The notes under the pieces are model-generated. The model saw nothing but the letters and a program-made list of their open reading frames with translations. It made no database searches and was not told the DNA's origin. 64,000 bases of DNA from Promethearchaeota archaeon. GTDB lineage: Archaea; Asgardarchaeota; Lokiarchaeia; Sigyniarchaeales; SOKP01. The stretch covers positions 96,001 through 160,000 of the forward strand of contig JAHPZI010000028.1 in assembly GCA_019058295.1 (NCBI GenBank). The letters are read 5' to 3'. Each line of letters opens with the position of its first letter. Position 1 is the first letter of the stretch. Of this stretch, positions 25,579 through 27,369 are shown in pieces. A program made the translations under genes and the position numbers.

Positions 25579-25771
25579 CCAAGAAAATTTTTCTTAATAA
25601 TTAGTGTTTTCTAAATTAGGATAAAATCACTAATCTTTATATTTCTTTATTATATATTAAATTAGTTCCATAATATTCTAAACATTTATTAGAACTAAAT
25701 ATATAAGTGATAAAGGATTTTTGATATGATAAAGAAGAATACAATATTAACGAAATATAAATATTGCCAGC

Positions 25772-25883
25772 GCCAGCGTATAAAACTTATAGTTAATATA
25801 AGTTTACGCAACCGAGTAGTAAGGAGGCGGCCTGCAGAGCCGTTGCGCAAGCAGCGTGGGTGCAAATCCCACCGCTGGCTCCA
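25772..25883 (+). tRNA. tRNA-Cys(GCA) with intron 25782-25811 (position 10/11) and long variable arm; CCA encoded
   Basis: Acceptor GCCAGCG/CGCTGGC, U73 plus CCA; anticodon arm GCGGC-CTGCAGA-GCCGT; T arm GTGGG-TGCAAAT-CCCAC; D stem TCCG/AGGA forms only after intron removal; adjacent to cysS. Confidence 0.9.
25782..25811 (+). other. 30-nt tRNA intron with relaxed bulge-helix-bulge (HBh') motif
   Basis: 4-bp helix GCGT/ACGC, 3-nt bulge ATA, 9-bp intron stem AAACTTATA/TATAAGTTT, 3' site AA|C. Confidence 0.82.
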
Positions 25884-25935: not shown

Positions 25936-27369
25936 TTGATGGTTTATAATAGCTTGACATTCCAGAAAGAGGAATTCAAAACAATCAAACCAAATGAAGT
26001 TCTAATGTATGTCTGTGGTCCCACGGTGTATGATAGCCCTCATTTGGGGCATGCTAAATCTGCTGTTGCTTTTGATCTTGTCCATCGTTATTTAAAGTTC
26101 AAAGGCTATAATGTGAAATTAGTAAAGAATTATACTGATATTGATGATAAAATAATACAAAGAGCAAATGAAAGGAACATAGATTTTAATTCATTAAGCG
26201 AGCAATATATAAAAGAATACGAGGATATCATGAATGCTTTAAACGTCGAAAAGGATTATATGAATCCACGAGCTACGGAAACCATCGATTTTATGATTGA
26301 AGTAATTCAAGGATTAATCAAAAATGAGCATGCGTATGAAAGAAATGGTTCTGTATATTATTCTGTTAAAACTTTTCCAAAATATGATTCGATATTTCAG
26401 AATGTAAAAAAAGGAGAGATACACGATGAAAATGAGGATATTGAAGATCAGGATATTGCCTATGGAGATGATAAAGAAGATCTCCGAGACTTTGCATTGT
26501 GGAAAAAACACAAAGAAGGAGAACCTTATTGGGAAAGTCCCTGGGGTAAAGGTCGCCCTGGATGGCATATTGAATGCTCGTCCATGTCAGTTAATATATT
26601 AGGTGAAACTCTTGATATCCATGGAGGAGGTCAAGATTTAAAATTTCCACATCATCGAAACGAAATAGCTCAATCAGAAGGGTATACAGGAAAGAAATTT
26701 GCAAATTATTTTATGCACAATGGCTTTGTTAATGTAGATGATGAAAAAATGTCAAAAAGCCTCGGAAATTTCTTTTTAGTTTCGGAGGTTATAAAAAATT
26801 ACGACCCAATGGTAGTAAGACTATTTCTATTTTCAAGCCATTATCGAAGTTCTATCAATTATTCTTTAGACAATATGAATCAAGCTAAAAAAAACTACAA
26901 TAGGCTTTTAAGTACTATTAGAAATATCCACGAGCTAAATATAAAAGATATTTCTTCTAAAAATATTAAAGAGTTGATTTTAGAAATCGAAAAGGCAGAA
27001 AAATCAATTATCGAAGCTATGGATGATGATTTTAATACTCCCATTGCTCTTGCTGAGTTCTTAGGATTATTTAGAGTAATAAACAGAGAAGTATTAGAAA
27101 ATAAAGTACCTATTAATAAAGATTTCAAGGATAAATTCTTTAATTTTGTAGATAATATGAATAAGATATTTGGTTTATTTCCAAATCTAAAAAGCCAATT
27201 AACACTAGGGGATGAGGTATCTCTTGATGAAAAGGGAACTACTATTCAGAATTTATTGAAAATTATTTATGATGTTAGAGCAGAGCTGAGAACCCGAAAA
27301 ATATATGACTTAAGTGATAAAATCCGTGATAAATTAAAAGAATTAGGCATTAATATTGAGGATAAATGA
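25936..27369 (+). CDS. cysS: Cysteine--tRNA ligase (possible true start ATT at 25933)
   Basis: YVCGPTVY, HLGH, DFALWK, GRPGWHIECS, FPHH.NE, KMSKS. Confidence 0.97.
   Translation: MMVYNSLTFQKEEFKTIKPNEVLMYVCGPTVYDSPHLGHAKSAVAFDLVHRYLKFKGYNVKLVKNYTDIDDKIIQRANERNIDFNSLSEQYIKEYEDIMNALNVEKDYMNPRATETIDFMIEVIQGLIKNEHAYERNGSVYYSVKTFPKYDSIFQNVKKGEIHDENEDIEDQDIAYGDDKEDLRDFALWKKHKEGEPYWESPWGKGRPGWHIECSSMSVNILGETLDIHGGGQDLKFPHHRNEIAQSEGYTGKKFANYFMHNGFVNVDDEKMSKSLGNFFLVSEVIKNYDPMVVRLFLFSSHYRSSINYSLDNMNQAKKNYNRLLSTIRNIHELNIKDISSKNIKELILEIEKAEKSIIEAMDDDFNTPIALAEFLGLFRVINREVLENKVPINKDFKDKFFNFVDNMNKIFGLFPNLKSQLTLGDEVSLDEKGTTIQNLLKIIYDVRAELRTRKIYDLSDKIRDKLKELGINIEDK

Follow-up and report, generated by a model that had tools for sequence, protein, structure and literature searches.

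A class II-like variable arm and a covarying elbow pair, A18/G55, were found together on the body of a tRNA-Cys(GCA) gene in the window, i.e. the whole stretch of 64 000 nucleotides of DNA that was analysed; this combination is common in its order and undescribed as far as could be found. Cysteine tRNAs are textbook class I tRNAs, class II comprising the tRNAs for serine, leucine and selenocysteine, plus tyrosine in bacteria. The window gene departs from class I at two points: its variable loop is 12 nt long instead of 4–5 nt, and it carries A18-G19 and G55-C56 in place of G18-G19 and U55-C56. As in class II, its variable region is 10 nt or longer and folds into a paired arm. The parts of the gene and its neighbour, all on the plus strand, are as follows.

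25766–25771, plus strand: copy, in the leader, of the six bases that open the acceptor 5' strand, identified in the sequence
25772–25781, plus strand: 5' exon, tRNA positions 1–10 (acceptor 5' strand, U8, A9, U10)
25782–25811, plus strand: intron of 30 nt with a bulge–helix–bulge motif, between tRNA positions 10 and 11
25812–25880, plus strand: 3' exon, tRNA positions 11–73
25815–25821, plus strand: D loop of 7 nt, with A18 at 25818 and G19 at 25819
25834–25836, plus strand: anticodon GCA, followed by G37 at 25837
25844–25855, plus strand: variable arm of 12 nt, stem 25844–25846 with 25851–25853, loop GCAA at 25847–25850
25861–25867, plus strand: T loop, with G55 (25862) replacing U55 and C56 retained
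25880–25883, plus strand: U73 (25880) and encoded CCA (25881–25883)
25936–27369, plus strand: cysS, 477 amino acids, Pfam tRNA-synt_1e (9.6e-125) and DALR_2

The earlier note had placed the tRNA-Cys at 25812–25883. tRNA-Cys sequence is indeed present there, but this stretch holds only the 3' exon and the gene starts at 25772. The acceptor 5' strand at 25772–25778 is complementary to 25873–25879 (acceptor stem 7 bp, T stem 5 bp). Two bases lie between the variable stem and the T stem, the second of which is the conserved C48 (25855). The 3' exon is 100% identical in two relatives (G005 and G007).

The splice motif of the intron consists of a 4 bp central helix (25776–25779 with 25806–25809), an inner helix of 9 bp and 3 nt bulges at 25780–25782 and 25810–25812. 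When the window gene was scanned for splice motifs, the best match was this 10/11 intron with its 9 bp inner helix. Cuts after the second base of each bulge join U10 to C11 and form the D stem. As predicted from the motif, the archaeal splicing endonuclease, which cuts at bulge–helix–bulge structures, would release 25782–25811 and the ends would be rejoined. The G+C content of the intron (0.20) is like that of other introns in this tRNA-Cys gene family, and a homologous intron is present in the relatives G004 and G120. A six-base copy of the start of the acceptor 5' strand was found within 25 nt upstream in eight of eight genes of type A (the G55 type) that have an intron at position 8–11, and in none of 61 that do not. 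The genes with such a copy are the window gene (25766–25771) and loci L003, L007, L012, L026, L029, L143 and L156. As long as the splice helix holds the true 5' strand, its leader copy could base-pair with the acceptor 3' strand.

When the exons were joined, ARAGORN called an 82 nt tRNA-Cys(GCA) with a long variable region. In the unspliced 64 kb window no tRNA was reported by ARAGORN or at the Rfam gathering threshold, the 3' part of the gene scoring 27.1 bits with the Rfam tRNA model against a cutoff of 29; the gene is missed in the raw window because the 10/11 intron displaces the 5' exon. Genomes of this kind can therefore seem to lack a tRNA-Cys when tRNA finders of the standard kind are used. 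The assembly from which the window comes amounts to 3.2 Mb and is 79% complete; among its genome neighbours are genomes of 4.4 and 6.0 Mb, each in a single contig, from a sister family, and the order is probably an Asgard one of the Loki type. The locus is very probably a working tRNA-Cys(GCA) gene, as judged from its sequence and that of its relatives. A pseudogene was considered and rejected: the gene type is kept in 48 genomes and is the sole tRNA-Cys found in several that are 100% complete.

The variable region described in the earlier note (12 nt, with a 3 bp stem and a GNRA loop, GCAA) was found as such at 25844–25855. Its spread was surveyed in all 154 genomes of the order with BLAST and a pattern that describes the tRNA-Cys 3' half. 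A variable hairpin of 12–14 nt was detected in 48 of the 154, a count made by a method that can miss genes with introns in the 3' half and on genomes many of which are incomplete; it always occurred in a gene of the G55 type. These are 46 genomes of the family of the window, f1 (genera g1, g2, g6 and g11), and two of a second family. Type A tRNA-Cys carries either such a hairpin or a 5 nt variable loop. The tRNA-Cys genes listed for other Asgard classes have 5 nt variable loops, and in a sample of 400 Asgard genomes no long variable region was found in a tRNA-Cys with a normal TTC T loop. Eight matches to the long-arm pattern in that sample were discarded as introns at 37/38 or chance matches. 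Routine occurrence of such arms in Asgard tRNA-Cys had been named beforehand as a finding that would count against the unusual nature of the gene; the arms are common within one order, and the remainder of the 400-genome sample yielded none.

An alignment was made of 24 distinct long-arm sequences, which contain at least ten different hairpins. All four stem pairs were paired in 100% of the cells for the 24 sequences, compared with 31–80% for controls slid along the alignment, and the pairing was as good as that of the anticodon and T stems in the same alignment. Both partners vary in two of the pairs (CG/GC/UA and UA/CG); the other two vary by wobble only. The loops also vary (GCAA, GAAA and U-rich loops of three or four bases). 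U44 and C48, at the two ends of the arm, are invariant and flank the insert as they do in short-arm genes. A five-arm cloverleaf was the minimum-energy fold in three of five intron-less homologues; the fifth arm was missing from the minimum-energy folds of the other two (G008 and G039). On the evidence of the aligned genes, the arm is conserved as a structure and not as a sequence, and its stem is maintained by selection.

The contact between G18 and Psi55 is among the most conserved of all tRNAs. Both replacements reported for the window gene, AG for G18G19 in the D loop and TGC for TTC in the T loop, were confirmed in the sequence, and the proposed covariation of A18 with G55 held in the larger set: A18-G19 was found in 65 of 65 scorable G55 genes. 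U55 genes (those with the same synteny in genera g8 and g3, those of type B and those of other families) have G18-G19, with the exception of one genome, G023, in which the D loop of the U55-type tRNA-Cys (L026) reads C-C-G at the G18-G19 site. A G55 tRNA-Cys was also detected by pattern in 38 of 87 genomes of a distant Asgard class; the four genes of this class that were read (L167–L170, family f31) have A18 too, all with 5 nt variable loops. The pair was absent from the other tRNAs detected by ARAGORN in the genome of the window. A18 and G55 truly covary, at a tertiary pair that is almost universal, and they do so specifically in cysteine tRNA. The elbow has an old origin and is found widely in Asgard tRNA-Cys; the arm is a later addition, present only on that elbow type and in one order. 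A compact accessory array of 27 tRNA genes is located elsewhere in the same genome, outside the window (contig C22, 30303–33335). Its tRNA-Cys (C22, 33015–33090) has G55, lacks G18 and has a short variable loop; the accessory set copies the odd elbow of the lineage.

Retention of the GCA anticodon and of U73, claimed at the outset, was verified (25834–25836 and 25880), and the tRNA is assigned to cysteine by ARAGORN. Since GCA, G37, U73, G1-C72, G15 and C48 are kept, it would be read as a tRNA-Cys and is predicted to be charged by the CysRS encoded by the cysS gene that starts 55 nt downstream. This CysRS is full-length, and cysS was found as a single copy in a search of the whole genome assembly. 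A search of a contig collection with the CysRS returned only distant bacterial and archaeal CysRS (40–47% identity) and no close relatives. In most genera of the family, type A tRNA-Cys, with an acceptor stem like that of the window gene, lies just upstream of cysS. This order is lost in genus g11 (L005, L009, L128–L141 and L158) despite its many long-arm genes, and the link is also lost in two other families. The suggestion that the remodelled tRNA had co-evolved with the adjacent CysRS found no support for the arm: long-arm and short-arm genomes are not told apart by any column or indel of CysRS. A CysRS tree of 46 rows requires at least five gains or losses of the arm, between close sisters, and sister enzymes adjoin both long-arm and short-arm genes.

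The tRNA-Cys genes termed type B differ from type A in the anticodon stem, and their elbow is canonical, with G18-G19 and TTC in the T loop. They are represented by loci L115–L120, L172 and L174 and can carry D-loop and T-loop introns. Two weak matches to type B (G063 and G004) were confirmed as genuine intron-containing type B genes; a third weak BLAST match (G068) was a tRNA-Phe and was rejected. Over the curated cutoff, SepRS and SepCysS were each detected in 48 of 154 genomes, and the two sets largely overlap. Type B was found in about 35–40 of some 49 SepRS-positive genomes of the family, and only one genome, which is 61% complete, has type B without SepRS. Type B tRNA-Cys tracks SepRS and SepCysS, an association that is new here.

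The relation between the arm and the phosphoserine route was counted by hand in family f1. Among the 46 genomes with the long arm, SepRS was found in two plus one fragment, SepCysS in none and type B in one; among the 29 with the short arm, SepRS or SepCysS was found in 27 and type B in 22. An exception is G155 (99% complete), with a short arm and no SepRS. Four long-arm genomes have a full SepRS, and three of these (G063, G039 and G041) have a second, canonical tRNA-Cys; no second tRNA-Cys was found in the fourth, G008 (72% complete). Neither SepRS nor SepCysS was found in the genome of the window (79% complete) or in G007 (99% complete), the tRNA of which is identical. The long arm is almost confined to genomes without SepRS and SepCysS, which is suggestive; the pattern is phylogenetically clustered and represents few independent events. 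Five independent pairs were available on the CysRS tree, of which two were concordant, none was against and three were ties (not significant). The SepRS fragment just mentioned (G083, contig C13, 4–870) encodes 295 amino acids, lies at a contig end and contains a single in-frame TAG; either gene decay or the assembly edge may account for it. In the genome of the window SepSecS is encoded on contig C30 (102776–104077, 479.8 bits), and no PSTK was found above the cutoff.

The gene was compared with four known systems. Canonical archaeal tRNA-Cys is charged by CysRS and, where present, SepRS. The window tRNA agrees with canonical archaeal class I tRNA-Cys(GCA) in its anticodon, G37, U73, G1-C72, 7/5 acceptor and T stems, G15 with C48, 3 bp D stem with a 13–22 mismatch and location next to cysS, and differs from it in having a 12 nt stem-loop in place of a variable loop of 4–5 nt, A18/G55 in place of G18/Psi55 and an intron at the rare position 10/11. 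With class II tRNAs it shares a D stem of 3 bp and a variable region that measures 10 nt or more and forms a stem-loop between the T and anticodon arms; unlike them it has cysteine identity (GCA, and U73 where the tRNA-Ser of the genome has G73), and its arm, with 2–4 pairs and 12–14 nt in the family, is at the very short end. Its 25782–25811 intron resembles archaeal bulge–helix–bulge introns at noncanonical positions, of which its relatives have examples in the D arm and T loop and at 37/38; the variable-arm insert, in contrast, fails on geometry, length and composition.

The only long-arm tRNA-Cys treated in a review is a bacterial tRNA-Sec-like 8/4 species with a truncated CysRS (PMC7609411). 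These selC*-type tRNA-Cys (Mukai et al., 2017) are described there as bacterial, with an 8/4 structure, a long anticodon stem and often a UCA anticodon, and the partner CysRS as truncated and devoid of the anticodon-binding domain (PMC7609411). The window tRNA shares with them the cysteine identity elements and a long variable arm, and selC* is sometimes beside a dedicated CysRS; unlike them it is archaeal, 7/5 and GCA, and the neighbouring CysRS is full-length (catalytic domain plus DALR_2, 477 amino acids). For Methanosarcina mazei, one paper cites tRNA-Cys isoacceptors of which SepRS and CysRS prefer different ones (PMC9976931). There, as here, more than one tRNA-Cys that differ in the tertiary core can occur per genome alongside the direct and phosphoserine routes; unlike in M. 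mazei, the tRNAs are divided according to elbow pair and variable arm, the division is drawn from co-occurrence across genomes and the window genome has the CysRS side only. SepCysE binds the elbow of tRNA-Cys (PMC5688128), and given such precedent, changes in the variable region or elbow could plausibly affect the phosphoserine route. Neither the arm nor the elbow trait is mentioned in papers on Asgard SepRS (PMC5424206, PMC8762117 and PMC9499178). In the searchable full-text library that was used, neither a long-arm Asgard tRNA-Cys nor a natural A18/G55 pair was found to be described.

The reading that we consider likely is that the locus is a working tRNA-Cys(GCA) gene from which the intron is spliced, that the arm and A18/G55 are lineage traits and, with less confidence, that the arm may be tolerated in the absence of phosphoserine duty. 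The mature tRNA would keep the 12 nt region as a short fifth arm (2–3 bp with a GNRA tetraloop), and its elbow would be held by an A18/G55 contact in place of G18/Psi55. This reading has to be weighed against removal of the segment, as a second, very short intron or by other processing, which would leave an ordinary class I tRNA-Cys. The lineage is rich in noncanonical tRNA introns, one of them in the window gene itself, and the arm is patchily present inside genera, as is typical for introns. However, the true introns of these tRNA-Cys genes (21 distinct; near position 8–11, at 37/38 and in the D and T loops) are 15–33 nt long with a G+C content of 0.19–0.48 (mean 0.32), whereas the variable-arm inserts are 6–9 nt long with a mean of 0.59, the exon value. 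The scanner for splice motifs was very permissive and gives many false matches; it recovers the true introns and was used to look for a shared arrangement. It found no bulge–helix–bulge arrangement at the arm that is common to the variants, and in G008, G039, G041, G063, G076, G099 and G126 it returned no arrangement of any kind; nor was a bulge–helix–loop geometry conserved. Loops of three or four bases on stems of three or four pairs cannot share one cut geometry, and C48 beside the T stem is invariant, as expected for a retained base. Because the inserts are short, exon-like in G+C content and without a shared splice motif, the arm probably stays in the mature tRNA-Cys; removal, the possibility that the earlier note had itself raised against its claim, seems very unlikely now that the segment has been found not to be intron-like in length, G+C content or splice motif. 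A change of identity, in which SerRS would charge the tRNA so that cysteine codons would partly be read as serine or Ser-tRNA-Cys would feed a tRNA-dependent conversion, is hardly credible. It would draw on the fact that long variable arms are SerRS determinants and on the presence of SepSecS (479.8 bits) in the genome. Against it, the tRNA has U73 and an arm of only 2–3 pairs, whereas the tRNA-Ser of the genome has G73 and an arm of about 15 nt with 4–5 bp; a full-length CysRS with an anticodon-binding domain adjoins the gene; and in several 100% complete genomes this is the sole tRNA-Cys found, so that mischarging would affect every cysteine codon. Conversion through SerRS, PSTK and SepCysS was rejected, as SepCysS is absent from every long-arm genome and no PSTK was found above the cutoff in the 79% complete assembly.

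The family has two kinds of tRNA-Cys, a G55 type that is usually beside cysS and a canonical type that travels with SepRS and SepCysS. More tentatively, the hairpin in the variable region might be tolerated, or be mildly useful to the tRNA core, only if the tRNA is spared the phosphoserine route, either because the route is absent, as in the genome of the window, or because another, canonical tRNA-Cys serves it. The arm could instead be a neutral leftover, an insertion or an exonized old intron in which a tight hairpin is kept because the tRNA would otherwise break, the link with SepRS and SepCysS being an accident of ancestry and exchange. This is not likely, but several observations are in its favour: the test on independent pairs was not significant, no matching change was seen in CysRS and the genes gain and lose introns at many positions. 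Hairpins are also common to several genera (GCAA in g1 and g11, a 14 nt form in g1, g6 and g11), and a few alleles may therefore be inherited or exchanged. On the other side, the raw counts are lopsided (SepRS in any form in 3/46 long-arm genomes versus SepRS or SepCysS in 27/29 short-arm genomes), the pattern recurs within three genera, the CysRS tree, with five or more gains or losses, speaks against one frozen accident and no relative was found with a true intron at the variable-arm site. A stronger functional reading goes beyond tolerance: the family would make Cys-tRNA by two routes insulated from each other, CysRS acting on the A18/G55 tRNA-Cys and SepRS/SepCysS on the canonical one, with the elbow pair and the arm as discriminators. 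SepRS, a class II enzyme that approaches from the side of the arm, would for instance be blocked by it, and SepCysE by the altered elbow. We regard this as unlikely at present.

In this gene family a near-universal tRNA contact is swapped for A18/G55 in two separate Asgard classes, and a class II-like arm has been added in one order. If the insulation of the two routes were true, it would constitute a natural pair of mutually orthogonal synthetase–tRNA systems for one amino acid. If the two types of tRNA-Cys are truly dedicated to CysRS and SepRS, respectively, they would provide naturally insulated pairs for phosphoserine genetic-code expansion and would also bear on how direct and indirect cysteine coding coexist.
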